NCBI GenBank assembly: GCA_030390025.1
Contig: CM059432.1
Location: 50,408,001 to 50,472,000 of the forward strand
DNA: 64,000 nucleotides
Reading direction: 5' to 3'
DNA from: Squalus acanthias
Taxonomy: Eukaryota
The position numbers and the translations under genes were made by a program. The notes beneath the pieces were generated by a model. The model had not been told where the DNA came from. It made no database searches and worked only from the letters and a program-made list of their open reading frames with translations. Positions 3,825 to 60,128 of this stretch are shown in pieces; the first letter of the stretch is position 1, and each line of letters begins with the position of its first letter.

Positions 3825-3918
3825 AAATGAGAAGTCGCACAACACCAGGTTATAGTCCAACAGTTTTATTTGAAATCACGAGCTTTCGGAGCGCTGCTCC
3901 TTCGTCAGGTAAAGTATA
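3825..3918 (-). mobile_element. Penelope family B 3'-terminal mini-insertion (94 bp)
   Basis: Matches the PLE 3' end at 60040-60128. 14-bp TSD TTGAGTATATTCAA at 3811-3824 and 3919-3932. Confidence 0.9.
3876..3912 (-). ncRNA. Minimal type-I hammerhead ribozyme motif (PLE family B)
   Basis: UUAC-CUGACGA-A-GGAGC-AGC-GCUCC-GAAA-GC-UC-GUGA. Predicted cleavage between 3880 and 3879. Confidence 0.8.
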
Positions 3919-4261
3919 TTGAGTATATTCAAGACAGAGATCGATAGATTTTTGAATATTAAGGGAATCAAGGGATATGGGGATAGTGCAGGAAAGTGGA
4001 GTTGAGGTAGAAGATCAGCCATGATCTTATTGAATGGTGGAGCAGACTCGAAGAGTCAAATGGCCGACTCCTGCTCCTATTTCTTATGTGCTTATATTAC
4101 CAGTCTCCCACTGAAGCTATGGCAGGAGACTGGTAGAACCACTTACTGAAACTGAAACATTCAAAAACAACCATAAGTAATGTAAGGAACAGGGAAAAAA
4201 AACATTTAATCCATTCCCCTTGTTTCCATTTTGTAGTAGTGTTCTTTTGAATCACAAACTG

Positions 4262-4360
4262 TGTCGGGTTGGCTCAATAGTGGAACTCTTACCTTGGGAG
4301 TTAGAAAGTTGTAGGTTTGAAGCCCACTCCAGGACTTCAGCACATAATGTAGCCTAACGC
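4262..4360 (+). mobile_element. Deu-type SINE tRNA-like head fragment
   Basis: TTGGCTCAATAGTGG...GGTTTGAAGCCCACTCCAG, homologous to the SINE heads at 51120 and 52788. Confidence 0.6.
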
Positions 4361-4369
4361 ATTGCCATA

Positions 4370-4905
4370 GAGGCGATCGTGATGTTAAGGCACCGGCCTC
4401 ATTCGAATTTAACAGGCGAGCTACAGCTGCCAAATGGGTGCTGCTCGCCACTCATCAGCCTCAGGTATGTTTCCAGCTGTGGCACCATCGGAGGCCTGCA
4501 GGTAGGGCCTTGGGGGAGGCAGCAGAAGAGGCCGGGCCGGCAGCTGCCCACAGTACTTTTGTGGAGGCAGGAGGAGCATTCCTGTTCCTTTCAGCCCCAC
4601 GAGAAAATAAATTCTTAAAATTCGTCTGGACGTTTCCTGATCGGAACGTCAGTACATATGGGTGGAGTGTGCTCATTGCAAGCACCGCCCATGTGTCCTA
4701 TAAAATTTCAATCGGGGTCCTAACTACATCATTAGGACCCTGATTTGTTTGTTTCAGGCAGGCGCTTCAGTTGCCCAGCAATAGGCCCCTGTGAAAGTCG
4801 CAGTGGTCCAATTATCGGGGTTAACAGGGCGGTAAGGCTACCGACTTCATTTTTAGGCCCTCACCGCCCTGTTAATGCCAATCTTCCCAACTGAAAATCG
4901 AGCCC
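4370..4905. mobile_element. GC-rich non-autonomous Harbinger-like element (degenerate)
   Basis: Ends in GAAAATCGAGCCC (TIR-like). Internal motifs resemble 39565-40400 and 61140-61723. Left end uncertain. Confidence 0.45.
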
Positions 4906-7079: not shown

Positions 7080-7873
7080 ACCAAAGTATTACAAAGTATT
7101 GACAGCACAGAAACAGGCCATTCAGCCCAACAGGTCTATGCCAGTATTTACGCTCCTCACGAGCCTCCTCCCACACTTCTTCATCTAACCCCATCAACAT
7201 ATCCTTCTATTCTTTTCGCCCTCATGTGTTTATCTAGCTTCCCCTGAAATGCATCCATTCTAGTCGCCTCAACTACTCCTTGTGGTAGTGAGTTCCACAT
7301 TCTAACCACTCTGGGTAAAGAAGTTCCTCCTGAATCCCTATTGGATCTATCAGTGACTATCTTATATTTATGGCCCCTAGTTCTGGTCTCACCTGCAAGT
7401 AGAAACATCTTCTGTACGTCTACCTTATCAAGCCCTTTCATAATCTGAAAGACCTCTAGCAGGTCACCCCTCAGTCTTCTCTTTTCTAGAGAATAAAGCC
7501 CCAGCCTGTTCAATCTTTCCTGATAGGTATAACCTCTCTGTTCTGGTGTCATTCTGATAAATCTTTTTTGTACCTTCCCCTGTGCCTATATATCCTTTTC
7601 ATAATATGGAGACCAGAACTGTTCACAGTACTCAAAGTGTGGTCCAACCAAGGTTCTATACAAGTTTTAACATAACTTCTCTGTTTTTCAATTCTATCCC
7701 TCTAGAAATGAAATGCTTTTTATATGGACTTATTAACCTGCGTCGCTACTTTTAGTGATTTGTGTATCTGTACCCCCAGATCTCTCTGTTCCTCTAACCC
7801 ATTAGAAACTTATTTTCCAAGGAGTATGTGGCCTCCTTATTCCTCCTACCAAAATGTACTGCCTCACACTTAC
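7080..7873 (-). mobile_element. CR1 3' fragment
   Basis: ORF 7181-7552 (ERLNRLGLYSLEKRRLRGDL) plus 3' UTR. Confidence 0.9.
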
Positions 7874-8129
7874 ATAAGAACATAAGAAATAGGAGCAGGT
7901 GTAGGCCATTTGGCCAATCAAGCATGCTTCACCATTCAATAAGATCATGACTGATCTTCTACCTCAACTTCACCTTCCCACACTATCCCCATTTCGCTTG
8001 ATTCTCTTAGTATCCAAAAATCTATCGATCTCTGTCTTGAATATAATCAACAACTAAGCATCCACAGCCCTTTGGAGTAGCAAATCCCAAAGATTTACAC
8101 CTCTTTGAGTGAAGAATTTTTTCCTCATC
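7874..8129 (-). mobile_element. CR1 3' UTR fragment
   Basis: (CATAAGAA)n tail followed by the ATAGGAGCAGG 3' UTR motif. Confidence 0.85.
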
Positions 8130-8130
8130 A

Positions 8131-9533: not shown

Positions 9534-9535
9534 GT

Positions 9536-10856
9536 ATAAGAACATAAGAACATAAGAAATAGGAGCAGGAGTAGGCCATTTGGCCCTTCGAGCCTACTCC
9601 GCCATTCAATAAGATCATGGCTGATCTTCTACCTCATCTCCACTTCCCTGAACTATCCCCATATCCCTTGATTCCCTTAATTTTCAAAAATCTATTGATC
9701 TCTGTCTTGAATATACTCAATGACTAAGCCTCCACAGCCCTCTGGGGTAGAGAATTCCAAAGATTAACCACCCTCTGAGAGAAGAAATTTCTCCTCATCT
9801 CAGTCCTAAATGGCCGACCCCTTATTCTGAGACTGTGACCCCTGGTTCTAAACTCCCCAGCCAGGGGAAACATCCTCCCTGCATCTACCCTGTCAAGCCC
9901 TGTAAGAATTTTGTATGTTTCAATGAGATCACCTCTCATTCTTCTAAACTCTAGAGAATATAGGCCGAGTCTACTCAATCTCTCCTCATAGGACAATTCC
10001 CCCCATCCCAGGAACCAGTCTGGTGAACCTTCGTTGCACTCCCTCTATGGCAAGTATATCCTTCCTTAGGTAAGGAGACCAAAACTGCACACAGTACTTT
10101 AGGTGTGGTCTCACCAAGGCCCTGTATAATTGCAGTAAGACGTCTTTACTTTTATACTGCAATCCTTTTGTAATAAAGGCCAACATACCATTTGCTTTCC
10201 TAATTGCTTGCTGTACCTGCATGTTAACTCTCAGTGATTCTTGTACAAGGACACTCAGGTCCTCCTGAATATCAACATTTCCCAATCTCTCACCATTTAA
10301 AAATACTCTGCTTTTCTATTTTTCCTACCAAAGTGGATAACTTCACATTTCTCCACATTATATTCCATTTGCTGTGTTCTTGCCCACTCACTTAACCTGT
10401 CTATATCCCCTTGAAGCCTCCTTGCATCCTCCTCACAACTTACATTTCCACCCAGCTTTGTATCATCAGCAACCTTGGATATATTACATTTGGTCCACTC
10501 ATCCAAATCATTGATATAGATTGTGAATAGCTGAGGCCCAAGCACTGATCCTTACGGTACCCCACTAATTACAGCCTGCCAACCCGAAAATGACCCATTT
10601 ATCCCTACTCTCTGTTTTCTGTCCATTAGCCAATCCTTAATCCATGCTAATATATTACCCCCAACCCCATGAACCCTAATTTTGTGTAATAACTTATTGT
10701 GTGGCACCTTATCGAATGTTTTTTGAAAATCCAAATACACTACATCCACTAGTTCCCCCCTATCTACCCTGCTAGTTACAACCTCAAAAACTCTAACAGA
10801 TTTGTCAAACACAATTTCCCTTTCATAAATCCGTGTTAACTCTGCCCAATCATATT
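9536..10856 (-). mobile_element. CR1 RT and 3' end
   Basis: ORFs 9724-10545 and YLDFQKTFDKVPH; (CATAAGAA)n tail. Confidence 0.92.
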
Positions 10857-11368
10857 GTCCCTGAATTTGCGGTCGGAGACTTCCCGTGGGGAAATGCCTC
10901 CGATCCGCAAATAAAATGCCTACATACCTGGTGGTCCAGGAGGTACGGAGACTCACGGTCCTGGGCCTTTCCGGGTACCCGTGCGCAAAGACCCACGTAT
11001 CCCAGGGGCGCAGGCGGTTCGCAAGTGCCCCTGGGATCACGAGGGCCGGCCCAACGAATGAAAGAAAGAGATCCCCATTCATACTTATGGGGATTCCATA
11101 TGTATGGAAACCCCATAAGGATGAATGGGAATACCCCAAAAAATACATCGACACATCAAATAAATTTTTTTAAATGCCATTTAATTAAATATTTAAAACA
11201 AAAATTTATTTTTTTGAAAAATAAATGTAAATGTTTTAAAGGGGCTGAAAATAAACATACCTTTTTGTACAGGTTTTTTTTTTACATATAAATGGTTGAT
11301 AATTTATTTTAAACTCTTACGCTGGTAAAAGCAGGCCTTACAATCCAATGATAGAGCAATCTGGGGGC
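10857..11368 (-). mobile_element. Non-autonomous Harbinger-type element (GC-rich end, AT-rich core, internal hairpins)
   Basis: Shares GGTCCTGGGCCT, CCAGGGGCGCAG and CCCCTGGGATCACG with the reverse complement of the 23254 and 34846 elements. Ends are degenerate. Confidence 0.65.
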
Positions 11369-18122: not shown

Positions 18123-19353
18123 ATGGGAACCATTTATTTCCTTTCCTCCTGGACATCAGATTCGGACGAAGACCAGCCGTGGCAGCAGCAGAACCCGGAA
18201 CAACAGCAGCACCAACAGCAGCAGCAACAACAGGAGCGCCAACCTGCTGCTCACCCACCTGAAGCTGCACAGGCCAGAAGGCGCCAGTGCAGGGAAGCAC
18301 TTCGCCGCAGGAGATACCCCCAAAACAGGGTTTACAGACAGAGGATGAGCTACCTCAACATGAGTGAGCAGCAGTGCCAAAGGAGGCTGAGACTTTCGCG
18401 AGAGGTAGTCGGTGACATCTGCACAATGCTGAAGCAAGACCTGGAGCCCAGAGGAGTGGGTCGTAAAAGTCACCACCGCACTCAACTTTTTTGCTTCAGG
18501 CTCATTCCAGGAATCAACAGCAGACATCAGCGGCGTCTCCCAGGCGGCTGCACACACTTGCATCACACAGGTAACCGATGCCCTCTTTGCAAAGGCGCAC
18601 AATTACATCAACTTCTCCAAGGATCAAGCAAGTATAACCGCGTGTGCGGTTGGATTTGCTAATCTGGCAGGCTTTCCAAGGGTGCAGGGCGTCGTAGACT
18701 GCACACATGTGGCCCTTAAGGCACCCCATCACAATCCAGGTATTTTTGTCAACCGCAAGGGCTTCCACTCCCTCAACGTGCAGCTGGTGTGTAACCACAA
18801 TAAGGAAATTTTGCATGTTTGCGCCAAGTACCCTGGCAGTTGCCATGACTCCTTCATCCTGCGGCAGTCTAGTGTGCCTCCGCTCTTCAGTCCGCCAAAC
18901 CAACTTTGCGGATGGTTACTTGGAGACAAGGGCTATCCCCTGAAGACGTGGCTAATGACGCCGTTCAGGAGGCCATCCAACGAAGCTGAGGAGAGCTCCA
19001 ACTCCAGCCACATTTTGACCAGATCCATTATCGAGCAAACCATCGGCTTGCTGAAGATGCGATTCAGATGCCTTGATAGATCAGGTGGAGCCCTGCAGTA
19101 CTCAGCAGCCAGGGTCTCCAGAATCGTCGTGGTCTGCTGTGCACTTCACAACATGGCACAGCATCATGACTTGCAGCTGCCTGAGGTACAAGTGGCTCAT
19201 CGCATAACCTCCTCAGATGAGGAGGAGGAGGAGGAGGAGGAGGAGAGTGAGAACAAAGACCTTGCGGAGGCGCATCAACCAGTGGCAGAAGCACACGAGA
19301 ACATTGCTGCCCGGGATGCAAGGGATGCACTCATCTTGGCCAGATTTGCTTAG
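18123..19353 (+). pseudogene. Harbinger DDE transposase (DDE_Tnp_4/HARBI1-like) with a single frameshift near 18462
   Basis: [37 protein letters not shown]. 18463-19353 is one frame. PolyQ N-terminus and polyE C-terminus. Confidence 0.92.
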
Positions 19354-22081: not shown

Positions 22082-22486
22082 AAGAAAGAAAGAAAGGAAT
22101 GAAGAAAGAATTACAGCTAATGAAGTACTTTTTTGGAGTGTAGTCACTGTTGTAATGTGGGAAACGTGGCAGCCAATTTGCACACAGCAAGATCCCACAA
22201 ACACCAATGTGATAATGACCAAACAATTTTTTTTTAGTGATGTTGATTGAGGGATAAATATTGGCCAGGACACCGGGGATAACTTCCCTGCTCTTCTTCA
22301 AAAGAGTGCCATGGGATCTTTTACGTCCATCTGAGAGAGCAGACGGGGCCTCAGTTTAACGTCTCATCTGAAAGACGGCACCTCCGACAGTGCAGCATTC
22401 CCTCAGTACTGCACTGGAGTGTCTGCCTGGATTTTTGTGCTCAAGTCTCAGGAGTGGGACTTGAACCCACGTCCTTCTGAATCAGG
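22082..22486 (-). mobile_element. Deu-domain SINE (SacSINE1/AmnSINE1-like)
   Basis: Deu-like core (reverse complement GCAGTACTGAGGGA..TGCACTGTCGGAGGTGCCGTCTTTCAGATGAGACGTTAAACTGAGGCCCCG) and tRNA-like B-box GGTTCAAGTCC. Confidence 0.85.
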
Positions 22487-22547
22487 TTCTAGCTCAACAT
22501 TTGAAATGCAGCGTTAAAATTGTGGAACTTAATGCTCAAGATCCTTA

Positions 22548-22870: not shown

Positions 22871-23253
22871 ATTACATCGGAGATGTGATGAAGGTAGTAG
22901 TAGTATTAGGTCTGAAAGTCGTCTCTGATGATAATGCTGCATTGAATGTCTTCAGAAACTGTCTGGCCTTTGCTGTGAAGGACCTGGATGGAAAAAATAA
23001 ATCTATCTCTCTCTCTCTCTGTCTCTCTCCATCCAGATCCACTCACAGCAAAAGCCAGGCACTCTCTGAGACCAGGCAATCAGTCTCTGACCTGCAATGC
23101 AGCAGCAATGATGACATCATCAGAGGCGACTTTCAGACTGAAACCACAATTGGTACATGGGTCCCCACATGCTAGAACTCAATTGCCCAATTAAGTGAAA
23201 ATTGCATCATTCATCCACATTAATCTGGAGTCGGGGAGCATACAATACATAAT

Positions 23254-23997
23254 GGCCCAAAAATTCGGCCATTCTCGGGTGAGTACTCAATGCGTACTCA
23301 CCCGTATTCATTCCCGAAGTGCCGGTTTCCTGCATGCGCGGGAAACCGGCATGGTGAAGGGGGCGTTTCCTAGGTGAACCGCGTGCGCGCTAGAGGCTGC
23401 ACGCACGCAGCACACTTAGATTTTTTTTCAGGTTTCAACGCGAGGGTAAATATTGAAGATACTACGCTAATAAAAAGGAGGCGTAAGACCCCTTTTGAAC
23501 AAGGTAAGTAGTTAATTAAGTATAATTTTAAATTTTTTTCAACAGGTTTATCTTTTTTAGATACTTTAAAGAAAGGTAAGTTTATTTTTATAACTTTTAA
23601 AAAGTATTTTAATTTTTTCAAAAATTTAAATTTTTGTTTAAAGTGGTTAATTTATTTAACTATAGTTATTTTATAAATGTGATGGGTTTTTTTTTAATTT
23701 ATTTGAGGTTTAGCAGTTCTTTTGGGGCCGATTTCAATTCATAGATTTGACAGGTCTCCTGTCAAATCTATGAATGAAAGATGGTCTGCTGCCATTGGCC
23801 CTCCATGGCTCACGTGATCCCAGGGGTCGCATCGCACTAACTGCGCCCCTGGAACACGCAAGCACTGCGCGCCGGCTCTTGGGAGAGGCCCAGGACCCGA
23901 AGTTCCTGTGGGCCCAAAACACAACGGCAGGCGCGGTGGGTAAGAGCGCGCGCGATCCTTACCCCCGCGGCAAGCCGGCCACGCGAATTTCTAGGCC
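23254..23997 (+). mobile_element. Non-autonomous Harbinger-type element, family N1 copy 1
   Basis: TIRs GGCCCAAAAATTCG / reverse complement GGCCTAGAAATTCG; flanks AAT/ATT; collinear with 34846-35598. Confidence 0.85.
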
Positions 23998-37829: not shown

Positions 37830-37929
37830 TAAAATAAAAACAGAAAATGCTGGAAATACTCAGCAGGTCAGGCAGCATCTGTGGAGAGAGAAATAGAGTT
37901 AACGTTTCAGGTCGATGACCTTTCGTCAG
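37830..37929 (-). mobile_element. Penelope family A 3' mini-insertion with hammerhead core (stem I 5' strand lost)
   Basis: Matches ~42892-42987. TCAGTAC duplicated at 37823-37829 and 37926-37932, overlapping the CUGA core. Confidence 0.85.
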
Positions 37930-42640: not shown

Positions 42641-42954
42641 GTTCCTGGCTTTATAATTAACGTCAGCATAAAATTAAGAATAGAGCTTTTTGTAGATTTA
42701 TCCTGGAATTTATTATTTATCACTGTAACCCTCTTCCTTCCCAATAAAAATCACAGTAAACTGCCTTTTATATTTTAAACCGAGGCCCCATCTCTGAGGT
42801 GGACATAAAAGATCCCAAGGCACTATTCAAAGAAAAGCAGGGGAGTTCTCCCAATGCAAAAAGAAAATACTGCAGATGCTGGAAATCTGAAATAAAAACA
42901 GAAAATGCTGGAGAAACTCAGCAGGTCAGGCAGCATCTGTGAAGAGAGAAACAG

Positions 42955-42991
42955 AGTTAACGTTTCAGGTCGATGACCTTTCGTCAGAACT
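42955..42991 (-). ncRNA. Minimal type-I hammerhead ribozyme motif (PLE family A)
   Basis: AGUU-CUGACGA-A-AGGUC-AUC-GACCU-GAAA-CG-UU-AACU; palindromic AACGUU at stem III. Confidence 0.82.
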
Positions 42992-43291: not shown

Positions 43292-44782
43292 TTATGATCT
43301 GAAATTGTTGAACTCTATGTTGAGTCCAGAAGGCTGTAAAGTGCCTAATCGAAAGATGACGTGCTGTTCCTCGAGCTTATGCTGAGCTTCCATGGAACAA
43401 TGCAAGAGGCCGAGGACGGTGAGGTCTGAGTGGGAGTGGAGCGGTGAATTAAAGTGACGGGCGACCGGAAGCTCGGGGTCCCCCTTACGGACTGAACGGA
43501 GGTGTTCCGCAAAGCAGTCACCCAATCTGCGTTTGGTCTCCCCAATGTAGAGGAGACCACATCGTGAGCAGCGAATACTGTATACTAAATTGCAAGAAGT
43601 ACAAGTAAATCGCTGTTTCACCTGGAAGGAGTGTTTGGGGCCCTGGACAGTGGGAAGGGGGGAGGTATAAGTGCATGTGTTGCATCTCCTGCGCTTGCAC
43701 GGGAAGGTGCCGGGCGAAGGGCAAGGTGTGTTGGGGGTGATAGAGGAGTGGACTAGGGTGTCGCAGAGGGAGTGGTCCCTACGGAATGCTGAAAGGGGAG
43801 GTGAGGGGAAGATGCGTTTGGTGGTGGGATCACCCTGGAGGTGGCGGAAATGGCGGAGGATGATCCGTTGAATGTGGAGGCTGGTGGGGTGAAAGGTGAG
43901 GACAAGGGGAACTCTATCGTGGTTCCGGAAGGGAGGGGCAAGGGTGAGGGCAGAAGTGCGGGAGATATAACGGACACGGTCAAGGGCCGTGTCAACCACT
44001 GTAGAGGGGAATCCTCGGTTGAGGAAAAAGGAAGACATGTCGGAAGCACTGGTATGGAAGGTGGCATCGTCAGAGCAGATGCGGCGGAGACGGAGAAACT
44101 GGGAGAATGGAATAGAGTCCTTACAGGAGGCGGGGTGGAAGGAAGTATAGTCCAGGTAGCTGTGGGAGTCAGTGGGCTTGTAGTGAATGTTTGTCAATAA
44201 CCTATCCCCAGAGATGGAGACGGAGAAGTTGAGGAAGGGAAGGGAAGAGTCGGAGATGGACCATGTGAAGGTGAGGGAAGGGTGGAAATTGGAAGCAAAG
44301 TGGATGAAATTATCTAGTTCAGGGCGAGAGCAGGAAACGGCACTGATACAGTCATCAATGTACCGGAAAAAGAGGTGAGGGAGGGGACACGAGTAGGACT
44401 GGAACACAGAGTGTTCCACATATCCCACGAAGAGGCAGGCATAGCTAGGACCCATGCGGGTTCCCATAGCAACACCTTTGATTTGGAGGAAGTAAATGGA
44501 GTCAAAGGAGAAGTTGTTCAATGTGAGAACAAGTTCAGCCAGGCGGAGGAGGGTGGTGGTGGATGGGGACTGGTTGGGCCTCTGTTCAAGGAATAGGCGG
44601 AGCACCCTCAGGCCATCCTGGTAGGGGATGGAGGTGTAGAGGGATTGGACGTCCATAGTGAAAAGGAGGCGGTTGGGGCCAGGAAACTGGAAACTGTTAA
44701 AGTGGCGGAGGGCGTCGGAAGAGACTGGACAAGTGGAGAAAAAATAGAGTCGAGATAGGAAGAGATAAGTTCCGTGGGGCAA
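43292..44782 (-). CDS. PLE RT + Cys linker + GIY-YIG endonuclease (open frame; N-terminus disrupted)
   Basis: MDVQSLYTSIP, GVAMGTRMGPSYA, FRYIDD, CKRRRCNTC, VYSIRCSRCGLLYIGET, PSGLN. Confidence 0.9.
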   Translation of the reverse strand: MPHGTYLFLSRLYFFSTCPVSSDALRHFNSFQFPGPNRLLFTMDVQSLYTSIPYQDGLRVLRLFLEQRPNQSPSTTTLLRLAELVLTLNNFSFDSIYFLQIKGVAMGTRMGPSYACLFVGYVEHSVFQSYSCPLPHLFFRYIDDCISAVSCSRPELDNFIHFASNFHPSLTFTWSISDSSLPFLNFSVSISGDRLLTNIHYKPTDSHSYLDYTSFHPASCKDSIPFSQFLRLRRICSDDATFHTSASDMSSFFLNRGFPSTVVDTALDRVRYISRTSALTLAPPFRNHDRVPLVLTFHPTSLHIQRIILRHFRHLQGDPTTKRIFPSPPLSAFRRDHSLCDTLVHSSITPNTPCPSPGTFPCKRRRCNTCTYTSPLPTVQGPKHSFQVKQRFTCTSCNLVYSIRCSRCGLLYIGETKRRLGDCFAEHLRSVRKGDPELPVARHFNSPLHSHSDLTVLGLLHCSMEAQHKLEEQHVIFRLGTLQPSGLNIEFNNFRS

Positions 44783-44916
44783 GAACAGGCTGAAATGATG
44801 GGTCTACCAGGGCAGTCCTGTTTGTGGATCTTGGGAAGGAGGTAGAAGCGGGTTGTGCGGGGTTGGGGAACTATGAGGTTGGCGGTTGTGGGGGGAAGAT
44901 CTCCAGAGGAGATGAG

Positions 44917-46244
44917 TCATAGAATTATAGTCATAGAGTTTTACAGCACAGAAAGAGGCCCTTCGGCCCATCGTGTCCGCGCCGGCCATCAAGCCCCGTC
45001 TATTCTAATCTCATTTTCCAGCACTTGGTCCATAGCCTTGTATGCTATGGCGTTTCAAGTGCTCATCTAAATGCTTCTTGAATGTTGTGAGGGTTCCTGC
45101 CTCTACCACCCTTTCAGGCAGTGAGTTCCAGATTCCAACCACCCTCTGGGTGAAAAAGTTTTTCCTCAAATCCCCTCTAAACCTCCTGCCCCTTACCTTG
45201 AAACTATGCCCCCTGGTTATTGACCCCTCTACTAAGGGGAAAAGTTCCTTTCTATCTACCCTATCTATGCCCCTCATAATTTTGTACACCTCAATCAGGT
45301 CCCCCCTCAGCCTTCTCTGCTCTAAGGAAAACAACCCCAGCCTGTCCAGTCTCTCTTCATAGCTGAAACGCTCCAGCCCAGGTAACATCCTGGTGAATCT
45401 CCTCTGCACCCTCTCCAATGCAATCTTATCCTTCCTATAGTGTGGTGACCAGAACTGCACACAGTATTCCAGCTGTGGCCTAACTAGCGTTTTGTACAGC
45501 TCCATCATAACCTCCCTGCTCTTATATTCTTTTCCTCGGTTAATGAAGGCAAGTATCCCATATGCCTTTTTGACCATCTTATCTACCTGTCCTGCTGCCT
45601 TCAGGGATCTATGCACATGCACACCAAGGTCTCTCTGATCCTCTGTCCTTCCTAGGGTCCTACCATTCATTGTGTATTCCCTTGCCTTGTTAGTCCTCCC
45701 AAAATGCATCACCTCACCCTTTTCAGAGTTAAATTCCATTTGCCACTGTTCTGCCCATCTGACCAACCCGTCTATATCGTCCTGGAGCATGAGGCATCCC
45801 TCCTCGCTATTTACCACTCCACCAATTTTCGTGTCATCTGCGAACTTACTGATCATACCTCCTACATTCATATCTAAATCATTAATGCACACTACAAACA
45901 GCAAAGGACCCAGCACCGATCCCTGTGGCACACCACTGGACACAGGCTTCCAGTCACAAAAACAACCTTCGACCATCACCCTCTGCCTCCTGCCACTAAG
46001 CCAATTTTGGATCCAATGTGCCAAATTGCCCTGGATCCCATGGGCTCTTACCTTCTTGACCAGTCTCCCATGCGGGACTTTGTCAAAAGCCTTACTGAAG
46101 TCCATGTAGACTACATCAACTGCACTACCCTCATCCACACACCTAGTCATCCCCTCGAAAAATTCAATCAAATTGGTTAGACATGATCTCCCCCTGACAA
46201 AGCTATGCTGACAATCCTTGATTAATCCTTGCCTCTCCAAGTGG
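44917..46244 (-). mobile_element. Young CR1 (intact RT C-terminal frame) nested in the PLE
   Basis: ORF 45011-46240 (409 aa), (CTATGA)-type tail, ATGAG duplicated at 44912-44916 and 46247-46251. Confidence 0.95.
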
Positions 46245-46774
46245 CCATGAGGTCAGTGCCAGTCTTGGAGATGGTGGCTTGATGTTCGGTAGTGTGGTCA
46301 TGGTCCAGGCGGAGGTAGGAGGAGGTGTCGGAGAGTTTGCGTTCAGCTTCCGCTAGGTAGAGGTCGGTTCGCCAAACAACAACAGCACCACCCTGGTCAG
46401 CAGGTTTAATGACAATGTCAGGGTTGGATCTGAGAGAATGGAGTGCTGCAAGTTCAGAGGGAGGTAGGTTGGAGTGAGTGAGGGGAGCAGAGAAATGGAG
46501 ACGGCTGATGTCACGCCGGCAGATTGCAATGAAAAGATCTAGAGAGGGTAAGAGGCCAGAGGGAGGGGTCCAGGTAGAACGAGAATTCTGAAAGCGGGAA
46601 AAAGGGTCCTTCAGGTAGAACGAGAATTCTGAAAGCGGGAGAAAGAGTTCTCCCAATGTCTTGGCCAACATTTATCCGTCAGCCAACGCCATAAATGAAA
46701 CAGATTAAATGGTCATTTATCTTATTGCTGTTTATAGGAACTGTCTGTGTGCAAATTGGCTGCCATGTTTGCTA

Positions 46775-46875
46775 CAACAACAACTTGCATTTATATAGTG
46801 CCTTTAACATGGTAAAACGTCCCATGGTGCTTCACAGGAGCGTTATCAAACAAAATTTGACACCGAGCCACATAA
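46775..46875 (-). mobile_element. L2 3' tail
   Basis: Reverse complement matches 53545-53646 (...GCTATATAAATGCAAGTTGTTGTTG). Confidence 0.75.
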
Positions 46876-46949
46876 AGAGCACAGCAAAGGAGTTCCCTAG
46901 GGAGCTGCCTGCCCAGGAGCCAAGACAATAGTGACTTCAAAAGTAATTA

Positions 46950-48360
46950 ATTGACTGTGAAGGAAGTTACACAGGGACTTGGACAGACTAAGCAAGTGAG
47001 CACAGCTATGACAGATGGAGTTCAATGTGGGGAAGTGTGAGGTCATCCACTTTGACCCGAGAAAGACAAATCTGAATATTTTCTTCATGGGAAGAGACTA
47101 GCAAGGAAAAATTGGATCGCGCCCCCTTTGGGGTACCAACTAATTTTAGCGCCCTGAAAATGTTAGCGCCCCCATGTCCAAAATTGAATGGTAGTGCCCC
47201 AGCAGGAGGCGGGGTGCTACTGGAAGCGCTCCCCCTCCCTCTAGGGGCGCTCCCATTGAATATCACGGCACTACGTGCAGCAGCGCCACGCGCGTCGGCA
47301 CATAACGCCACAGTACTACAGACCTCCCTCCCCTGATTAAAGGGGAGCAGCCTAGTGCAGCACACACTGGGGCCCTGCTGGACCACCGGGGAGCGGGGTG
47401 CCGGCAAAAGAGCCCGGCACTCAAGAGGAGTGCCGGGCTGACCGATCGCAGCTGGCACCCCGCAGGAGGAGGCGAGAGAGGGCAGGTACTGGCAGGTGGC
47501 CCAAAAAAAAGGCCGCCCGGCACCTGCCCTTTAATTTGCGTCACCCTGGCCGCAAACACGGCACCCTGACCCTGTTGGACATAGCATCCTGCGGTAGGTC
47601 AGGGGGCACGAAACAATTTTGCGGCCGGGGAGCTGTGCAAGGCGATGACGTCATCGCCGGAGTCGCAGCGCCGCGGGGCGCTACCGGCTACCGCCGCCGC
47701 TAACATCCCGCTGAATTTCGCAGGAGGTGTTAGCGGTGCCGCACCCGGGCGCTCGGGGCGCTAACAGGAGGCGCAAAGCAACCAAATTCTTTCCCCCAGG
47801 AACTGTGGAAGAGCAAAGGGATTTGGATGTCCATGTACACAAATCACTAAAGACTGATGCACAAGTACAAAAAGGCTAATGGGGATGTTCGCCATTATCT
47901 CAAGGGGGTCAGAATACAAAAGTGAGGAAGTTATGCTTCAGTTGTACAGAGCCTTGGTCAGATCCCATCTGGAGTATTGTGTTTGGTTTTGGGCGCTGCA
48001 CTTCAGGAGGGATATACTGGCCTTCAATGGGGTACAGTACAAATTTTTCAGAATGATACTGGGTCTTAAAGGGTTAAATTATGAGAACACTAAACTTGGT
48101 TTGTATTCCCTTGAGTTTAGAAAGTTGAGGGGAGATCAAATCGAGCTCTTTAAAATTATAAAAAGTACATACAAAGGAACTATTGCCTCCTGTGGGAGAA
48201 TCCAGAACAAGGGGGCATAATCTTAAATTGGAGCTAAACTAGGAGAGAATTCAGGAAGCGTTCTTCACACAAAGGGTAGTGGAAATCTGGAACTCTTGAG
48301 GTACAGATTATCTCTGATCTCATGGAATGGCAGAACAGGCTGAAGGTTCCTATTTTCCTT
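46950..48360 (+). mobile_element. Old CR1 3' fragment interrupted by an N2 element
   Basis: LVRSHLEYCVWFW; GLYSLEFRKLRGD. Confidence 0.8.
47102..47797. mobile_element. Family N2 copy 2
   Basis: Collinear with 30783-31473; right end reverse complement GGGGGAAAGAATTTGGTTG. Confidence 0.82.
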
Positions 48361-49604: not shown

Positions 49605-50025
49605 AAAGAGAGAAACACTTGTGCCTTTCATAACCACCGGACATCCCAAAGCTCTTTACAGCCAATAAAATACTTTTTGAAGTGTAGTCACTGTTGCAAT
49701 GTAGGAAATGCAGCAGCCAATTCACGCACAGCAAGTTCCCACAAACAACAATGTGATAATGACCAGGTAATCTGTTTTAGTGATATTGATTGAGGGATAA
49801 ATATTGGCCAGGACACCAGGGATAACTCCCCTGCTCGTCTTCGAAATACTGCTATGGGATCTTTTACATCCATCTGAGAGAGCAGACGGGGCCTCGATTT
49901 AACGGCTCATCCAGAAGATGGCAACTCCGGTTGCCCTGGAGCGTCAGCCTAGAATTTTGTGCTCAAGTCTCTGGAGTGCGACTTGAACCCACAACCTTCT
50001 GACTCAGAGGTGAGGGTGCCACAGT
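49605..50025 (-). mobile_element. Deu-type SINE
   Basis: Homologous to 22082-22486. Confidence 0.85.
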
Positions 50026-51119: not shown

Positions 51120-51783
51120 TCACTGTCTTAGCTCAGTGGTAGCATGCTCACCTGAATCAGAAGGTTACAGGTTCAAGCCCCACTCCAGGATTTGTCCACA
51201 TAATCTATTCTAGGCTAATATCCCAGTGAGGTACTGGAGGAGTGCTGTGTTGTTGGAGGAGCTGTCTTTCAGGTGAAATTTTAAACTGAGGTCCCATCTG
51301 CCGATTTAAATTGGCATAAAAGATCCTACTAGACTATTCAAAGAAGAGCAGGGGAGATCTCCTGGTGTCCTAACTAATGTTTATCCCTCAACCAACACCT
51401 ATTGAAAATAGATTAATTGGTCATTCTTCACATTGCTGCTTGTGAAGCCTTGCTGTGTGTACTCTTTTGGGTACGAACAAATAAACTGTAAATTAACAAA
51501 AATACATTAAATGAAACTTAACAAATTAAATTAAACTTTGATTGTCCGGGGTGATGATGCACTCCAGTCCCCATGGTGCCCACCGGTCGCAGGAAGGCCT
51601 CGAGCGTGCCAGCGGAAACCGCGTGCTCCGTCTCCAGCGCCACCCTTGCTGTGTGTAAATTGGCTGCCGTGTTTCCTACATTACAACAGTGACTACATTT
51701 TAAAAGTAATTTATTAACCATTATGCACTTTGGGAAATCCTGAAGGTGTAAAAAGCAGTATATAGATGCAAGTTCTTTCTTTC
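51120..51783 (+). mobile_element. Deu-type SINE interrupted at 51462-51643
   Basis: tRNA-like head, Deu core and L2-like tail. Confidence 0.85.
51462..51643 (-). mobile_element. Tx1/L1-like LINE 3' end
   Basis: VALETEHAVSAGTLEAF..RWAP..LECII C-terminal remnant; 14-bp TSD CCTTGCTGTGTGTA (51448-51461; 51644-51657). Clade call is from memory of similar C-termini. Confidence 0.6.
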
Positions 51784-51943
51784 TGTGCTGCCCATTGGCT
51801 ATTATTGCCATGTCCTAGTCATTTAACTGAACCCAGGTGGCTCTATATTCAGTGTCACCATACAGCCATATGGAGCAACGATCCAATCAATCAAATTACT
51901 TTGTGCTATGGCAATCGACTATGGCTCAATGACCATCAGAAAG

Positions 51944-52140
51944 GAGAAGTCGCACAACACCAGGTTATAGTCCAACAGTTTTATTTGAAATCACGAGCTT
52001 TCGGAGCTCTGCTCCTTCCTGACGAAGGAGCAGCGCTCCGAAAGCTCGTGATTTCAAATAAAACTGTTGGACTGTAACCTGGTGTTGTGCGACTTCTCAT
52101 TTTTGTCCACCCCAGTCCAACACCAGCATCTCCACATCAT
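51944..52140. mobile_element. Palindromic PLE family B mini-insertion (inverted 3' ends, hammerhead core 52019-52051)
   Basis: Minus arm 51944-52017, plus arm 52018-52140; TSD CATCAGAAAGG / CATGAGAAAGG. Confidence 0.88.
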
Positions 52141-52985
52141 CATGAGAAAGGTGTGCACAGACTTCAGCCTTGAAACTACAGTGTGCAAATATTATTTTAA
52201 TATAGATTACTGACCCCAGTAAAATAACAAGCAAAGGAATTGCATATGCACACATTAAGAGCTGACACTTTAATCTTCACACAGCTGAATTTTAAGGCCT
52301 CAATGGGTTTTAACTGTATGAATTATAACGTCAACATAGGAATTTGAGACAATGTGGCATCTGTGAGGAATTTCATTCAGAGGAGATTTTCTGTTCAAAC
52401 TATAGACAGGGATCAGGTTTTTGTGACATATGCAAAACATTTAAAGGATACTTACTGAAAACAAAATTAAGAAAAAAAATTGAAAAGCCCTTCTATTGCA
52501 GGCTAAACGTAAGCTTCCATATGTTTGTAATACAGACCTAATTGGTTTCAACTTGTGTAATTTATTGGGGCCAAAGTACTTGGTTTTTGATTCGCTGGAT
52601 ATGAACTAAGACCCATTATAACATTAAACTCCTACTGTTAACACTTTTTTGAACATACTATATGAGACTCTAATGCTAGTGGTGAGGGTCTGATTTTTTT
52701 TAAATTCAGGTTTTCAAGTGCGCTTCCAGGAAAAGCTGGCCTTTCAGTTAGCATGTAATGGATTTGCGGATCTCATATTTAGTGTCAGCTTTGGCTCAGT
52801 TGTACTACCCATACCTCTGAGTCAAAATGTTGTTGTTTCAAGCTGCACTCCGGAGACTTAAGCACATCATTTACGCTGGCACTTCAGCACAGTACTGAGG
52901 GAGTGCTGCATTGTCGGAGATGTTGTCTTTTGGATGAGACATTAAACTGAGGCCCCGTTTGCCCTCTCAGGTGGACATAAAAGAA

Positions 52986-53646
52986 CCTGGCTTCCCATCT
53001 TCCACCCTTCATAAACCTGAGCTCATCCAAAACACTGCTACCCGTATCCTAACTCGCACCAAATCCCGTTCACCCATCACCTATGTGCCCTGTCATTTCT
53101 TTTGGCCTTGTGCAGCCACTTTAAGGGGCTGCGCGGGCTATTCAAAATAACGCGCATGCACGGTTTTTACATTGAAATGCTGACAAGCCCGCTGCACGGG
53201 TTCAATGGAGCAGTGCTCACTGACCCACATTGGCTCCCGGCCCAGCAATGCCTCAATTTTAAAATTCTCATCCCTCCATGGCCTCGCCCCTCCCTATCTC
53301 TGTAACCTCCTCCAGCCCTACAACCATTCCCCCAACCCCCCAAGATCTCTACACACCTCCAATTCTGACCTCTTCTGCATTCCCTGTTTTAATCGCTCTA
53401 CCACTGGCACTGTGCTTTCAGCTGCCTAGGCCCTAAACTTTGGAATTCCCTCCCTAAACCTCTCTACTTATCTCTCCTCCTTTAAGGCGCTCCTTAAAAC
53501 CTACCTCTTTGTCCAAGCTTTTGATCATCTGTCCTAATATCTCCTTATGTGGCTCGGTGTCAAAATTTGTTTGATAACGCTCCTGTGAAGTGCCTTTGGA
53601 TGTTTTACTATGTTAAAGGCGCTATATAAATGCAAGTTGTTGTTGT
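52986..53646 (+). mobile_element. L2 LINE 3' end, with a ~120-bp insert at ~53090-53210
   Basis: ELIQNTATRILTRTK..HW..FKIL..GLAPPYL; tail GCTATATAAATGCAAG(TTG)n. Confidence 0.85.
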
Positions 53647-53779
53647 TATTGTTACTATTTGAAGAAGAGCAGAGGAATTCTTCCTGGTTTCTTGGCCAAT
53701 ATTTATCCATAAACCAATATTACTACAAAAGTGAGACGTCGCACAACACCAGGTTATAGTCCAACAGTTTTATTTGAAA

Positions 53780-53817: not shown

Positions 53818-55484
53818 AGTAAAGGAATACGAATCGACAAAGCATATATAGACAGAGAACAATGCATGTGTAGCGTACAATGTCAGATGACTACATTTAA
53901 TCCTCCTGACTGCCTTTCGTCACACCTCGGCAGAGAAACAATCAGGTCAGCCAGGAAGGCACCACATCAAAGACATAGCACGATACAACTGAGACAATGA
54001 GGTCACAGGGGGTCTAATGTGTCTGTATGGAAAACCATAAACATTAAAATTTTTAATTTTTTTTACTGGAAATCATATCTGTGAACAAGCCAACGACGAC
54101 TCGAGTCTGGATGACTCTACGTCATGTAGCGTGACATGAACCCTAGATCCCGGTTGAGGCCATCCTCATGAGTGCGGAACTTGGCTATCAGTTTCTGCTC
54201 GATGATTTTGCGTTGTCGTGTGTCTCGAAGGCCGCCTTGGAGAACACTTACCCGCAGATCCGAGGCTGAATGTCCTTGACTGCTGAAGTGTTCCCCGACT
54301 GGGAGGGAACACTCCTGCCTGGTGATTGTTGCGTGGTGTCCGTTCATACGTTGTCTCAGTGTCTGCATGGTCTCGCCGATGTACCATGCTCTGGGGCATC
54401 CTTTCCTGCAACGAATCAGGTAGACAACATTGGCCAAGTCACATGAGTATGTACCATGTACCTGGTGGGTAGTGTCCTCACGTGTGATGATGGTATCTGT
54501 GTTGATGATCTGGCATGTCTTGCAGAGGTTGCCGTGGCAGGGTTGTGTGGTGTCGTGGTCGCTGTTATCCTGAAAGCTGGGTAATTTTCTGCGAACTATG
54601 GTACTTCTGAGGTTAGGCGGCTGTTTGAAGGCGAGTAGTGGAGGCGTGGGGATGGCCTTAGCGAGGTGTTCGTCGTCATCGATGACATGTTGAAGGCTGC
54701 GAAGAACATGGCGTAGTTTCTCCACTCCGGGGAAGTACTGGACGACGTAGGGTACCCTGTTGGTTGTGTCCCATGTTCGCCTTCTGAGGAGGTCTATGCG
54801 ATTTTTCGCTGTGGCCCGTCGGAACTGTCGATCGATGAGTCGAGCGTCATATCCCGTTCTTACGAGGGCGTTTTTCAGCGTCCGTAGGTGCCCATCGCAT
54901 TCCTCCTCGTCTGAGCAGATCCTGTGTATTCTCGGGGCTTGTCCATAGGGGATGGCTTCTTTAATGTGGTTAGGGTGGAAGCTGGAGAAGTGGAGCAACC
55001 CAGTCGGGGAACACTTCAGCAGTCAAGGACATTCAGCCTCGGATCTGCGGGTAAGCGTTCTCCAAGGCGGCCTTCGAGACACACGACAACGCAAAATCAT
55101 CGAGCAGAAACTGATAGCCAAGTTCCGCACTCATGAGGACGGCCTCAACCGGGATCTAGGGTTCATGTCACGCTACATGACGTAGAGTCATCCAGACTCG
55201 AGTCGTCGTTGGCTTGTTCACAGATATGATTTCCAGTAAAAAAATGTAAAAATTTTAAAGTTTATGGTTTTCCATACAGACACATTAGACCCCCTGTGAC
55301 CTCATTGTCTCAGTTGTATCTTGCTATGTCTTTGATGTGGTGCCTTCCTGGCTGACCTGATTGTTTCTCTGCCGAAGTGTGACGAAAGGCAGTCAGGAGG
55401 ATTAAATGTAGTCGTCTGATATTGTACGCTACACATGCATTGTTCTCTGTCTATATATGCTTTGTCGATTCGTATTCCTTTACT

Positions 55485-55522
55485 TCACCTGACGAAGGGG
55501 CAGCAGCTCCGAAAGCTTGTTA
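55485..55522 (+). ncRNA. Hammerhead motif (family B)
   Basis: UCAC-CUGACGA-A-GGGGC-AGCA-GCUCC-GAAA-GC-UU-GUUA (stem I mismatch). Confidence 0.72.
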
Positions 55523-57269
55523 TTTCAAATAAAACTGTTGGACTATAACCTGGTGTTGTGCGACTTCTCACTTTTGTCCACCCCAGTCCAACACCGGCAT
55601 CTCCGCATCATGGCCAATATTACTACAACAGATTACCTGGTCAATATATCGTTACTGTTTGTGGGACCTTGTTGTGTCCAAATTGGCTGCTGTTTTTCAC
55701 TACATTACAATAGTTACTACACTTCAATTGTCTGTAAAGCACTTTGGGATTTCCTGAGGTTGTGAAAGGCGCTATATAAATGCAAGGTCTTTCATTCTTG
55801 GTATTTGATTAGTTTGGCTGAGAACAGCTTTCCGTTGACTAGAAGCATTCAGTGAATGATCAATAATCACTCTCAAATCCTTTCCTTTGTGACCAGACAC
55901 CTTTCATTGTGTGCACATGGTTGCTGTTTCCAGTTTCAACATGCATTACAATTACATTAAAATTATCTTGTCTTATTGAATCCTGGTTATCCCATTTCTA
56001 TTTGTCATCTGTCCCAGACCTTAGTATCATCAGCAAATTGTATCAAGCCTTGGTTTCTCATGCACTTGAAATATAGTATAATTAATTAAAAAAACAAAAA
56101 AGTTTTGAAGCATTTACTACGGCAGCAAGCTCTCAGGTAAATGTTAGAGTGAAAATGGTTTTAAATATCGCTGATTCCAACACCACCTGATCCCTAACAC
56201 GCATACACACCTCCACATAGAGAGACAATCTTAGTCTATTTTCATCAAAGCAAATGGCAAATACAAAATGCATTGCCTGTGATGTATTTACAAATAAATT
56301 GTATCTGCAAGATTTCCACAAGGACTATTTGCAGGAAATAAAAACATTCTAGAAATAGCCTTGCGTGTCAGAAGTGTTTTGAAAATCAGTCCCAGGACCT
56401 CAAAACAAACAACTTGTGTCATCTCATTGGGCTACCTTGGCAAAATATCCAGAAATCAATTTACATACTGCTAAACAAAGCAGCATGTGTTCAGTTTAAA
56501 ATAATGTTACTTCAGGGCATTTGGCAATATGTCAGAAATATAAAACGACTTGAACTGCCCTTATAGGAATCCTGTCAAATAGGACTTTATCATTCATACT
56601 GCTCTGATCCACAAACAAGCACAGCTAGTGGAAACACTTTAAGAGTAGCACAAGTCTTTTTGTAAAGATCAAACATCTTGCCAATAGCTAGAAAGGTGTG
56701 AAATTAGCCACAACTTTACAAAGGCCTATAACAATTCTTATAAATAATGAGTCAGGGATGAAGTGAGCAAAGGGGAAAAGGTTCAAAATGGGATTTTGTT
56801 ATTTTATCTACCATTCAACTGCAGTTATAGTTGCATGCACTGTTGACTAATGGTCAATTAACCAAATAATCTTTGCACTGTAGCTGACCTGAAATGTCTT
56901 ACAGTATTATTAGGTGAAATATGCTCCCTTCTCTACACTATAAATTTTCACTGCATTTGCTTGTTAGGGAAAATGGCACTAGGCTAAATCTAAAGTCACT
57001 TTTCTTTTGCAGATTCAGATCATAAACATAAATCATATAAAAGTGCTCCTATTGATTAAAAGCAAGGGGCAATGTCACTGTGTTGGGAAGTTCTCAAGCG
57101 GGCTCAAACCTGCTAGGAAAACTTGTTCTGCAGCACCATCACAGCAAGTTGTGTTGCATCAGACTCTCTGTATTGCTTTTCTATTGCATTTTTCACAGTT
57201 TTTATCTGGCAATCCTTATAACCATGTATATCAAGCACAAGTAACCCGATAGTTTCCTGGAGGCACCCA

Positions 57270-57570
57270 TGTATGCTGGGGTTTGGCTCACCAGCATCAG
57301 CAGCTCTCTGGCACTTTGCACAGAAGTCACTATTCTTCGCTTTCCAGTAGCAGTCAGCAGTCATAGAATAACAATCAGGAGCAGAGACCCTGGATGTTCT
57401 TTTTCCTCCCTATCTCAAGCACCTAGAGGCCTATTGAAGTGCTCTAACATTGTCCCAGCTGATATTAGCTACCTTAGTGCAAAGAAGGGATTGAACCTAG
57501 GACCTTTCCTCCTCTGTATGGCTCAGATCCACACCAGAGAATGCACTTACCAACGCAACCATCAGTGGAG
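57270..57570 (-). mobile_element. Old tRNA-derived SINE
   Basis: Reverse-complement B-box AGGTCCTAGGTTCAATCCC near 57488-57506. Confidence 0.45.
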
Positions 57571-57689
57571 CCTGACACAAACATCTTTTCAGCAAGTCCA
57601 TAGAAATTACACCATAAGGAGTAAAGGACATTTAAGCTTTGTGGCAACATGTTAGAAAGTGCATATTTCCAGCAACATGTTGATTGGGA

Positions 57690-59420
57690 CAAGAAAATAT
57701 GTTAGATGGAGATCAACATGGGGAAGTGTGAAGTCATCCACTTTGGACCTGAGTAAGACACTGAAATATTTTCTGAATGAGAGAGACTAGGAGCTGTGGA
57801 GGAGCAAAGGGATTTATTTGTCCATGTACACATAACTAAACGTTACTGCACAAGTACAAAAAGTAATCAAAAAGGCTACTGGAATGTTGACTTTTTCTTC
57901 AGGGGGGGTGGAATATAAAAGTAAGGAAGTGATGCTTCAGTTGTACCGAGCTTTGATGAAATCCCACCTGGAGTTCTGCATTTAGTTTGGGCACCGAACC
58001 TCAAGAAAGAGAAACTAGCCTTGGAAGGGGTACAGCACAGATTCACCAGAAATTTACCAGGGCTTAAAGGGTTAAATTATGAGAACAGGTTGCATAAATT
58101 TTATTCAGTTTAAAAAGTCGAGGGGTGATCTAATCAGGGTGTTGAAAATGATAACGGATTTGATAGGGTACATACAGAGAAGTTATTCCCTCTGGCGAGG
58201 AAATCCAGAACAAGAGGGCACAATCTTAAAATTAGAGCTAAGTTATTTAGGAGTGAAATGAGGAAACACTTCTTCTCATAAAGAGCAGTGGAAATCACTC
58301 CCCAAAAGGCAATGGATGCTGAGTCAATTGACATTTTCAAGACCTGGATTGACAGATTGTCGTTAGGTCAGGATATCAAAGGATATGAATAAATGCAGGC
58401 AAATTAAGGCTTGCGGACGACACCAAATTGGGAGATGTAGTTAATACAGAGGAGGACTGTGACAAAATGCAGGACAACATTAATAAATTTGCAAAACGGG
58501 TGTGTAATTGGCAAATGAATTTCAATATAGATAAGTGTGAGGTAGTACATTTTGGTAGGAAGAATAAGGAGGCCACATAGTCCTTGGAAAATAAGTGTCT
58601 AAATGGGGTAGAGGAGCAGAAAGAATAGGGGGTCCAGATACACATATTACTAAAAGCAGCGATGCATGTTAATAAGGCCATAAAAAAGCAAACAACGCAC
58701 TGTGGTTCATTTCTAGAGGGATAGAATTGAAAAGCAGAGAAATTATGTTAAACTTGTATAGGACCTCGGTTAGACAACACTTGGAGTACTATGAACAGTT
58801 CTGGCCTTCATATTGAATAAAGGATATAGAGGCACTGGAGAAAGTGCAAAAATGATTTAATAGGCATAACCTCTCAGTTCTGGTATTGTTCTATCAGGAA
58901 AGATTGAACAGGCTGGGGCTTTTTCTCTAGAAAACAGAAGACTGAGGGGTGACCTGATAGAGGTCTTTAAGATTATGAAAGGGTTTGATAGGGTAGACGT
59001 ACAGAAGATGTTTCCACTTGCAGGGGAGACCAGAACTAGGGACCATACATATAAGGTAGTCCCTAAGGAATTCAGGAGAAATTTCTTTGCCCAGAGATTG
59101 TTTAGAATGTGGAACACTCTACCACAAAGAGTAGTGGAGGCAACTAGCATACATGCATTTAAGGACAAGCTAGATAAACACATGAGGGAGAAAGTAATAG
59201 AGGGATATGCTGATAGGGTTAGATGAAGAAGGGTGGGAAAAGGCTCATGTAGTGCATGAACACTGGCGTGGATCTGTTGGGCCGAATAGCCTGTTTCTAT
59301 GCTGTAAATACTATGTAATACAATGTAAAGGCGAGTAAATGGAGTTGAGGTACAGATCAGCTAAGATCTAATTGAATGGCGGCACAGGCTCAAGAGGCTG
59401 AATGGCCTACTCCTGTTCCT
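57690..59420 (+). mobile_element. Tandem CR1 3' fragments (57690-58400, 58410-59328, 59330-59420)
   Basis: ADDTKLG, RRLRGDLIEVFK, RRNFFAQRL and 3' UTR tails. Confidence 0.85.
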
Positions 59421-59432
59421 ATGTTTACATTG

Positions 59433-60128
59433 CAGACCATGCAGACACTGCGACAACGTATGAACGGACACCGCGCAACAATCGCCAGGCAGGAGTGTTA
59501 CCTCCCAGTCGGGGAACACTTCAGCAGTCAAGGACATTCAGCCTCCGATCTTCGGGTAAGCGTTCTCCAAGACGGCCTTCGAGACACACGACAACGCAAA
59601 ATCATCGAGCAGAAACTGATAGCCAAGTTCCGCACCCATGAGGACGGCCTCAACCGGGATCTTGGGTTCATGTCACGCCATATGTAACCCCACCTGACGT
59701 AGAGTCATCCAGACTCGAGTCGTTGTTGGCTTGTTCACAGATGTGATTTCCAGTAAAAAAAATTAAAAAGTTTAAAGTTTTTGGTTTTCCATACAGACTG
59801 CAGCCTCTGCCACATTTGACCCCTTGTGACCCCACCTCATTGTCTTTGTTGTATTTTGCTATCGTCTTTGATGTAATGTCTTCCTGACTGACCTGGTTGG
59901 ATTTGATTGCCGTGATTGTCTCTCTGCCGAGGTGTGATAAAGGGCAGTCAGAAAGATTAACTGTAGTCGTCTGGCATTGTTCTCTGCACAGGCATTGTTC
60001 TCTGACTATATATGCTGTGCCCATTTGTATTTCTTCACTTCACCTGACGAAGGAGCAGCCGCTCCGAAAGCTTGTGATTTCAAATTAAAGCTGTTGGACT
60101 ATAACCTGGTGTTGTGCGACTTCTCACT
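59433..60128 (+). mobile_element. PLE family B 3' fragment
   Basis: TMQTLRQRMNGH..GLNRDLGFMSRHM*; 13-bp TSD TATGTTTACATTG (59420-59432; 60129-60141). Confidence 0.92.
60040..60077 (+). ncRNA. Minimal hammerhead ribozyme motif, fully paired copy
   Basis: UCAC-CUGACGA-A-GGAGC-AGCC-GCUCC-GAAA-GC-UU-GUGA; predicted cleavage after 60073. Confidence 0.83.

Follow-up and report, generated by a model that had tools for sequence, protein, structure and literature searches.

Penelope-like elements (PLEs) are already known to carry minimal hammerhead ribozymes. Minimal type I hammerheads were described in the pseudo-long terminal repeats (pLTRs) of metazoan PLEs by Cervera and De la Pena in 2014, and the part of their paper used here lists fish Neptune, Poseidon and Xena elements, coelacanth, Xenopus and reptiles, and describes the motifs as cutting poorly and only as dimers (PMC4209133). 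An excerpt of a later review attributes dimer cleavage to Lunse et al. 2017 (PMC6765202), and section 15 of another calls the function of PLE hammerheads "still unclear" (PMC8557442). In vitro, the Poseidon element PAc of Anolis carolinensis nicks its target and begins complementary DNA (cDNA) at two internal sites 3' of the hammerhead; PAc ribozyme mutants insert normally, and cleavage needs the element's own protein (PMC11167929). The Pen2a pLTR of Adineta vaga contains a TATA box followed about 20 bp later by the initiator-like word TCACT, and the passages on this pLTR draw no link to a ribozyme (PMC3846280). Here we describe a 64,000-nt stretch of the Squalus acanthias genome (contig CM059432.1, positions 50,408,001 to 50,472,000; hereafter the window) that contains seven such motifs. 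Our reading, to which we assign a probability of roughly 0.6, is that two Neptune-type PLE families, A and B, carry them in their pLTRs as minimal type I hammerheads, and that most genomic copies have their 5' end a short way upstream of the motif, likely since transcription of the element begins at the 5' arm of stem I and the RNA serves as template uncut.

Hammerhead motifs and their host elements

Both strands of the window were scanned. We found seven CUGACGA-A-stem II-GAAA-NN-UH cores, with C3 at 3908, 37929, 42987 and 53813 on the minus strand and at 52019, 55489 and 60044 on the plus strand. All seven cores named in the initial annotation are therefore present, far above the expectation from Markov controls. 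The motif-descriptor search that it had proposed gave 7 matches for the core with stem II (mean 0.45 and maximum 2 in 40 Markov-4 controls) and 4 matches for the full descriptor, in which stem I is required (0.025 in Markov controls). Five of the cores are of family A, the other two of family B. They represent six insertion events; 53813 and 55489 lie on two arms enclosed together by one 15-bp target-site duplication (TSD; 53714-53728/55614-55628). The insertions, with remnants of their open reading frames (ORFs) for reverse transcriptase (RT) and GIY-YIG endonuclease, are as follows.

3825..3918, minus strand: family A micro-insertion of about 94 bp; hammerhead 3912-3876, C3 at 3908, C17, predicted cut after 3880, short 3' end
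37830..37929, minus strand: family B micro-insertion; core from C3 at 37929 to position 17 at 37901, stem I 5' arm absent
42855..42954, minus strand: family B stretch 3' of the ribozyme, with the optional tail; genomic copies show two 3'-end clusters
42955..42991, minus strand: family B complete hammerhead; 4-bp stem I, 5-bp stem II, U17, predicted cut after 42959
43292..44803, minus strand: family B ORF remnant of 503 aa; RT motifs including YIDD, CX4CxxC linker, GIY-YIG
51936..52144, both strands: two family A arms head to head; the one on the minus strand, 51936-52014, is an eighth arm and has no CUGA; plus arm with core 52019-52047, C17
53729..54998, minus strand: family A long arm of an inverted pair; ORF remnant with thumb, linker and GIY-YIG, frame 54117-55022
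54999..55613, plus strand: family A short arm of the same pair; hammerhead 55485-55522, tail present
59433..60128, plus strand: family A 5'-truncated copy; ORF end, pLTR, complete hammerhead 60040-60077, predicted cut after 60073, no tail

All seven motifs have the minimal type I core with helix II and an extra base after A9, and the cut positions proposed earlier, after 60073 and after 42959, are correct as predicted sites. Other details of the first description hold only in part. Closure by a 4-bp stem I is seen in four motifs, 60044, 53813, 42987 and 3908 (the last with one G-U pair); the 5' arm was lost at the insertion junctions of 52019 and 37929, and the 3' arm is mutated in 55489. Stem II generally has five pairs, but 53813 has four, and 53813 and 55489 each include one G-U. 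The stem III palindrome is kept as a 4-nt sequence in all seven, whereas the 6-mer at helix III is not fully palindromic in 3908 and 52019, the two copies with C rather than U at position 17. The predicted energy of the helix III duplex in a dimer is -1.7 to -2.5 kcal/mol, and in the predicted monomer fold of family B the cleavage strand is paired with the core. This folding fits a latent ribozyme because the helix III duplexes are weak and the family B monomer occupies its own cleavage strand. On this model, the hammerheads of both families are likely latent ribozymes with an open helix III and mostly U17.

The Rfam search that had been proposed as a check did not bear the motifs out, giving no hammerhead in the window at the gathering score or at E <= 10. 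A match to mir-1597 at 51986-52056 (53 bits; gathering score 93) was rejected as a generic hairpin effect. At six control loci, three fold-back pairs matched four unrelated microRNA models with 33-48 bits, and none matched mir-1597. Positions 51936-52106 could be mis-annotated as a microRNA because the 80-bp fold-back of two hammerhead ends is a generic hairpin.

For a wider view of the genome, we used an unselected sample of 149 stretches of 10 kb at round coordinates (1.49 Mb). It contains 46 full motifs, or 31 per Mb (the window has 4 in 64 kb), which extrapolates to about 115,000 in the 3.7-Gb genome. Copies were gathered from the unselected stretches by a match to the tail alone. In 37 family A copies, the core is changed solely by G12>A in two (a CpG) and by G5>U in one; N7, loop 2 and position 17 (U in 27, C in 10) are variable. 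One stem I pair of family A is C-G at 13 loci, U-A at 10, U-G at two and broken at one, a true compensatory pair, and a stem II pair alternates between A-U and G-U. The covariation claimed at first is thus real and best seen within stem I of family A, whereas the comparison of the two families on which it was based is weaker, their proteins being 29% identical over 289 residues. Conservation is noisier in family B, with G8>A in at least three loci of 38 copies. Shared variants occupy 15 of the 19 columns just upstream of the family A core versus 1 of the 38 columns downstream. The core is therefore conserved above its upstream flank but not above the downstream 40 nt, which doubled as the search anchor, and this comparison, once offered as a possible refutation, is ambiguous. 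A family A subfamily (L158, L214, L245 and L246) has a 6-bp stem II, the U-A pair in stem I and no TATA at -30.

In each family the motif ends an ORF for RT and GIY-YIG. The frames upstream of 42987 and 53813 comprise RT or thumb, a cysteine linker and GIY-YIG. With the family B window ORF, Pfam gave RVT_1 (E 0.0036) and GIY-YIG (E 0.12), both below its cut-off, and a PDB search with the family A ORF gave one uninformative match (E 0.62). The closest named relatives in the databases are shark proteins, 82-92% identical; relatives of the ORFs carry PF00078 and many also PF01541. Longer genomic copies of both families have frames of 790-799 aa with DKG, YIDD and CX4CxxC, that is, a single ORF with RT (DKG, YxDD) plus GIY-YIG at the C terminus, of which the window copies hold the 3' part only. 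The relevant portion of PMC8557442 gives a CX2-5CxxC linker between RT and endonuclease as the mark of Neptune and Nematis, and families A and B both have it. Judged from their sequences, both are Neptune-type endonuclease-bearing PLEs, placed by a linker that Neptune has in common with Nematis. The identification of the motifs as PLE minimal type I hammerheads is upheld by these ORFs and by a fold equal to that of the minimal hammerheads in the part of PMC4209133 that describes them.

The motif had been placed at the 3' ends of two Penelope families. There are indeed two families with the motif after the ORF, but in longer copies it also stands upstream of the ORF, with the cut site 92 nt (family A) or 140 nt (family B) before the ATG. 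Of 30 long family B loci, 10 have a same-strand pLTR directly 5' of the ORF, as does the family A locus L113. Together with two inverted pairs in the window, these loci show the partial-tandem pLTR and the inverted 5'-truncated partner of PLEs. Family A copies end 51-62 nt (23/41) or 89-102 nt (15/41) past the cut, and family B copies end 58-76 nt (30/58) or 95-109 nt (22/58) past it; two 3'-end clusters per family indicate the optional PLE tail of 30-40 bp. The family B leader (L189:498-673; window 42855-42991, minus strand) contains several words of a pyrimidine run plus AG, one of which immediately precedes the ORF ATG. It also has an upstream ATG that opens a short frame, and an intron in the 5' UTR is possible from this sequence. 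At L171/L172 (G000:C8 near 97.615-97.619 Mb), a 3,148-bp tandem duplication includes a fold-back pair of family A together with the 5' portion of an element of family B. It was rejected as a PLE tandem, resembles a segmental duplication and was left out of the counts.

Where genomic copies begin

The 5' ends were mapped relative to the predicted cut site in 84 unselected copies (35 of family A and 49 of family B). Copies with a tail match shorter than 36 nt, an identity below 85% or less than 300 nt of upstream sequence were excluded, as were 7 family B copies ending 3' of +10. The ends lie at -26 to -45 in 29 of the 84 copies (0.026 per nt at risk), at +10 to -25 in 14 (0.005) and at -46 to -260 in 19 (0.003). 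When inverted arms are removed, the peak persists (17/63). Many of the short copies have TSDs of 8-14 bp and are therefore real insertions. Four ends are within 3 nt of the cut, all of them in family B (4/49, compared with 0/35 in family A). A cut RNA as template would put the 5' ends at the cut; because the ends avoid it, uncut RNA appears to be the usual template. We rejected the idea that cleavage has left a fossil record as ends at the cut site, because ends are not enriched there.

This distribution bears on the view that the motifs are active processing elements, which cut tandem transcripts as dimers so that a cut or circularised unit serves as template. The core and the helix III palindrome are conserved across subfamilies, dimers of minimal hammerheads cut weakly in vitro according to the corresponding part of PMC4209133, one of the four family B ends near the cut has a 14-bp TSD, and a circular template would leave no ends at the cut. 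However, the ends pile up 26-45 nt upstream, which a circle leaves unexplained, and family A has none at the cut. In addition, no window copy has a same-strand partner inside its own insertion, and the Anolis motif is dispensable for insertion in vitro, with no RNA-seq reads ending at its cut (PMC11167929). We regard active processing as unlikely.

The peak coincides with promoter-like motifs. Family A ends centre on C3-6/-7 (6 of 16 placed) and family B ends on C3-3 to C3-5 (9 of 14 placed). Each peak, near C3-7 and C3-4 respectively, sits at an initiator-like motif that follows a TATA or TATA-like box by about 30 nt. For scoring, we used strings that we take to be the TATA and initiator (YYANWYY) consensus. 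The initiator-like motif occurs at the 5'-end offsets in 17 of 20 long family A copies and in all 22 long family B copies. A TATA with at most one mismatch is found at -30 to -33 in 18 of 20 family A copies (shuffled mean 0.4), and a weak TATA-like word with at most two mismatches in 17 of 22 family B copies (shuffled 1.2). Among the ends listed for contigs of public runs, varied loose ends occur at L189:497-502 (C3 = 502) and window 60039-60045, and also at the two 3' ends (L189:597 and 625 in family B). A literature search that left aside subscription papers, Repbase/Dfam notes and bioRxiv supplements found no publication tying PLE 5' ends or TATA/initiator motifs to the ribozyme.

The peak could instead be made by RT or repair acting on a long RNA, through stalling or template switching after the folded motif or through microhomology at the preceding pyrimidine run. 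Inverted junctions are even more concentrated at the peak (12/21), the ends spread across about 15 nt, target microhomology is seen at 37929 and L277, and self-priming was proposed for PLE palindromes in the pertinent passages of PMC3846280. On the other hand, a structural block should halt RT before the hairpin and not after it. Although stem I is 4 bp long in each family, the peak offsets of the two differ and match each initiator-like motif. Nor does this explanation predict a TATA box at -30, and truncation drops from 21/73 in the -30 to -39 bin to 0/45 in the -50 to -59 bin (10-nt bins, window copies included). An origin in RT or repair thus seems doubtful, though somewhat less so than active processing.

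For family B, the CAG at stem I could also be a 3' splice site, as in Drosophila virilis Penelope, with the short copies derived from spliced RNA. A pyrimidine run and CAG precede the core in 22 of 22 long family B copies, and the D. virilis intron ends at helix I, as given in the segment of PMC4209133 on that element. Against this, the AG is often kept in short copies, which have no upstream exon in common; no GT..AG was found among the 15 joints listed (there were 192 further joints); and family A has no AG at stem I. We consider splicing highly improbable.

Several points count against RNA starts at stem I. The -26 to -45 window and the initiator positions were picked after the ends had been seen, and the P values for the pile-up (1e-7 and smaller) are optimistic because of this post hoc choice and the common ancestry of the copies. 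In family A, some 5 of 16 ends fall 4-8 nt upstream of where the RNA is proposed to start, and the four family B ends at the cut site make some cleaved template possible. In a second, biased set, drawn from loci that other searches had retrieved, only 6 of the 17 short copies end at -24 to -40. The family B TATA is weak and is degraded in the window copy. Finally, the loose ends come from contigs, which cannot show transcription starts, and no run is on record as RNA; the ends named are among those listed, and some listed ends reflect subfamily boundaries.

In the mechanism that we favour, transcription would be driven by a TATA/initiator promoter in the pLTR and start at C3-7 in family A and at C3-4 in family B. 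The target DNA would be nicked by the RT-endonuclease, which would begin cDNA internally, 50-110 nt past the cut, at either of two sites, and RT would run off the uncut 5' end of the RNA, giving solo hammerhead insertions or head-to-head pairs. Long copies would arise when the transcript exceeds one unit, and would start in its downstream pLTR. Cutting by the ribozyme would be limited to dimers or to cases where protein assists, and would rarely precede cDNA synthesis. A bolder version, for which we hold the odds to be even, is that the hammerhead of shark Neptune-type PLEs forms the first 33-37 nt of a capped transcript, with stem I's 5' arm overlapped or abutted by the initiator. In that case the ribozyme would be a decapping or fate switch and not a knife for processing tandems, and the roughly 100,000 solo genomic hammerheads would be run-off cDNAs that map PLE starts. 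If this is true, cleavage would strip the cap and about 35 nt, and an RNA start at stem I would explain why the genomic motifs are mostly solo. The end map makes the function of the ribozyme testable, as insertions appear to come mostly from uncut RNA that may begin at stem I.

On the plus strand of L159 near 1790, a short family B copy with a 14-bp TSD has an extra G before the first templated A, resembling a cap-derived G.

Insertions and other repeats in the window

Every window copy is 5'-truncated and without a full ORF. The insertion at 3908 has a 14-bp TSD (3811-3824/3919-3932), and a CR1 LINE runs on at both sides. That at 37929 has a 7-bp TSD (37823-37829/37926-37932), which overlaps CUGA. 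The insertion at 42987 has no clear TSD; this family B copy, which holds the ORF at 43292..44803, reaches about 44927 and has its initiator-like A at 42991. The head-to-head pair at 51936..52144 is predicted to form one long hairpin (-146 kcal/mol) and shares a 7-bp flanking word (51938-51944/52145-52151); its plus arm has the tail and lacks the 5' arm of stem I. In the second inverted pair, the long arm has TATA at 53850, an initiator-like A at 53820, the hammerhead at 53817-53780 with a predicted cut after 53784, and no tail, and the short arm has TATA at 55452 and an initiator-like A at 55482. Both window pairs thus have the tail on one arm only. The copy at 59433..60128 has TATA at 60007-60014, an initiator-like A at 60037 and a 13-bp TSD (59420-59432/60129-60141). 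An 8-9-bp stem is predicted in both families between the tail, folded back, and sequence 3' of the ribozyme (55535-55600; 42880-42940). This stem is a candidate RT start signal, and its stretch is conserved as strongly as the core.

The window also contains LINE pieces, presumably of the CR1 type, with RT and APE endonuclease matches (1-2317, 7086-8129, 9541-11169, 26788-33251, 45011-48287 and 57789-59422). Among them, 1-952 and 45290-46244 are 95% alike, and a GDSL-like frame at 32502-33251 is probably ORF1. Two DDE_Tnp_4 (Harbinger-type) transposase frames lie at 18433-19353 and 62755-63597, and a 750-bp repeat pair (23250-24000 / 34842-35601) has 81% identity. Dispersed SINE-like repeats occur at 22111-22487, 42772-42852, 49623-50017, 51150-51784, 52807-52988, 53532-53731 and 55615-55798; several Penelope ends adjoin or sit within such a repeat.

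Comparison with known systems

In the non-LTR retrozymes (bioRxiv 10.64898/2026.07.22.740005), the portion considered describes, as in our families, PLE-derived type I hammerheads, found in one chondrichthyan. A retrozyme is built of short units in tandem array, each bearing a hammerhead, whereas the copies in the window are single or head-to-head and are dispersed 5'-truncated PLE ends with TSDs. D. virilis Penelope (Schostak 2008) also has its promoter in the pLTR; unlike in families A and B, transcription begins 46 bp ahead of an intron of 75 bp whose end is at helix I, as stated in the pLTR passages of PMC2377424. The A. vaga Pen2a pLTR (Arkhipova 2013), in the sections of PMC3846280 devoted to it, likewise has a promoter in the pLTR and inverted pLTRs with the tail on one arm.

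The motifs of PMC4209133, as far as its compared sections go, resemble the shark motifs in the short helix I, the one extra base after A9, the palindromic 15.2/16.2 and the lack of a helix III loop, and also in occurring as thousands of mostly solo copies and as opposite-strand pairs. Stem II is 5 bp here compared with 7-8 in Schistosoma, and position 10.1 is A or G in family B; those sections do not name sharks or map 5' ends and promoter.

In PAc of A. carolinensis (Frangieh 2024, PMC11167929), the ORF starts inside stem II, whereas the shark ATG lies well past the cut, and the shark families have the Neptune/Nematis CX4CxxC linker. The main text of that study does not discuss the 5' ends of genomic copies. 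In both systems, the hammerhead stands at the junction of pLTR and ORF, two internal RT starts define the tail, and uncut RNA is the main substrate, as shown for PAc and as the end map suggests for the shark families.

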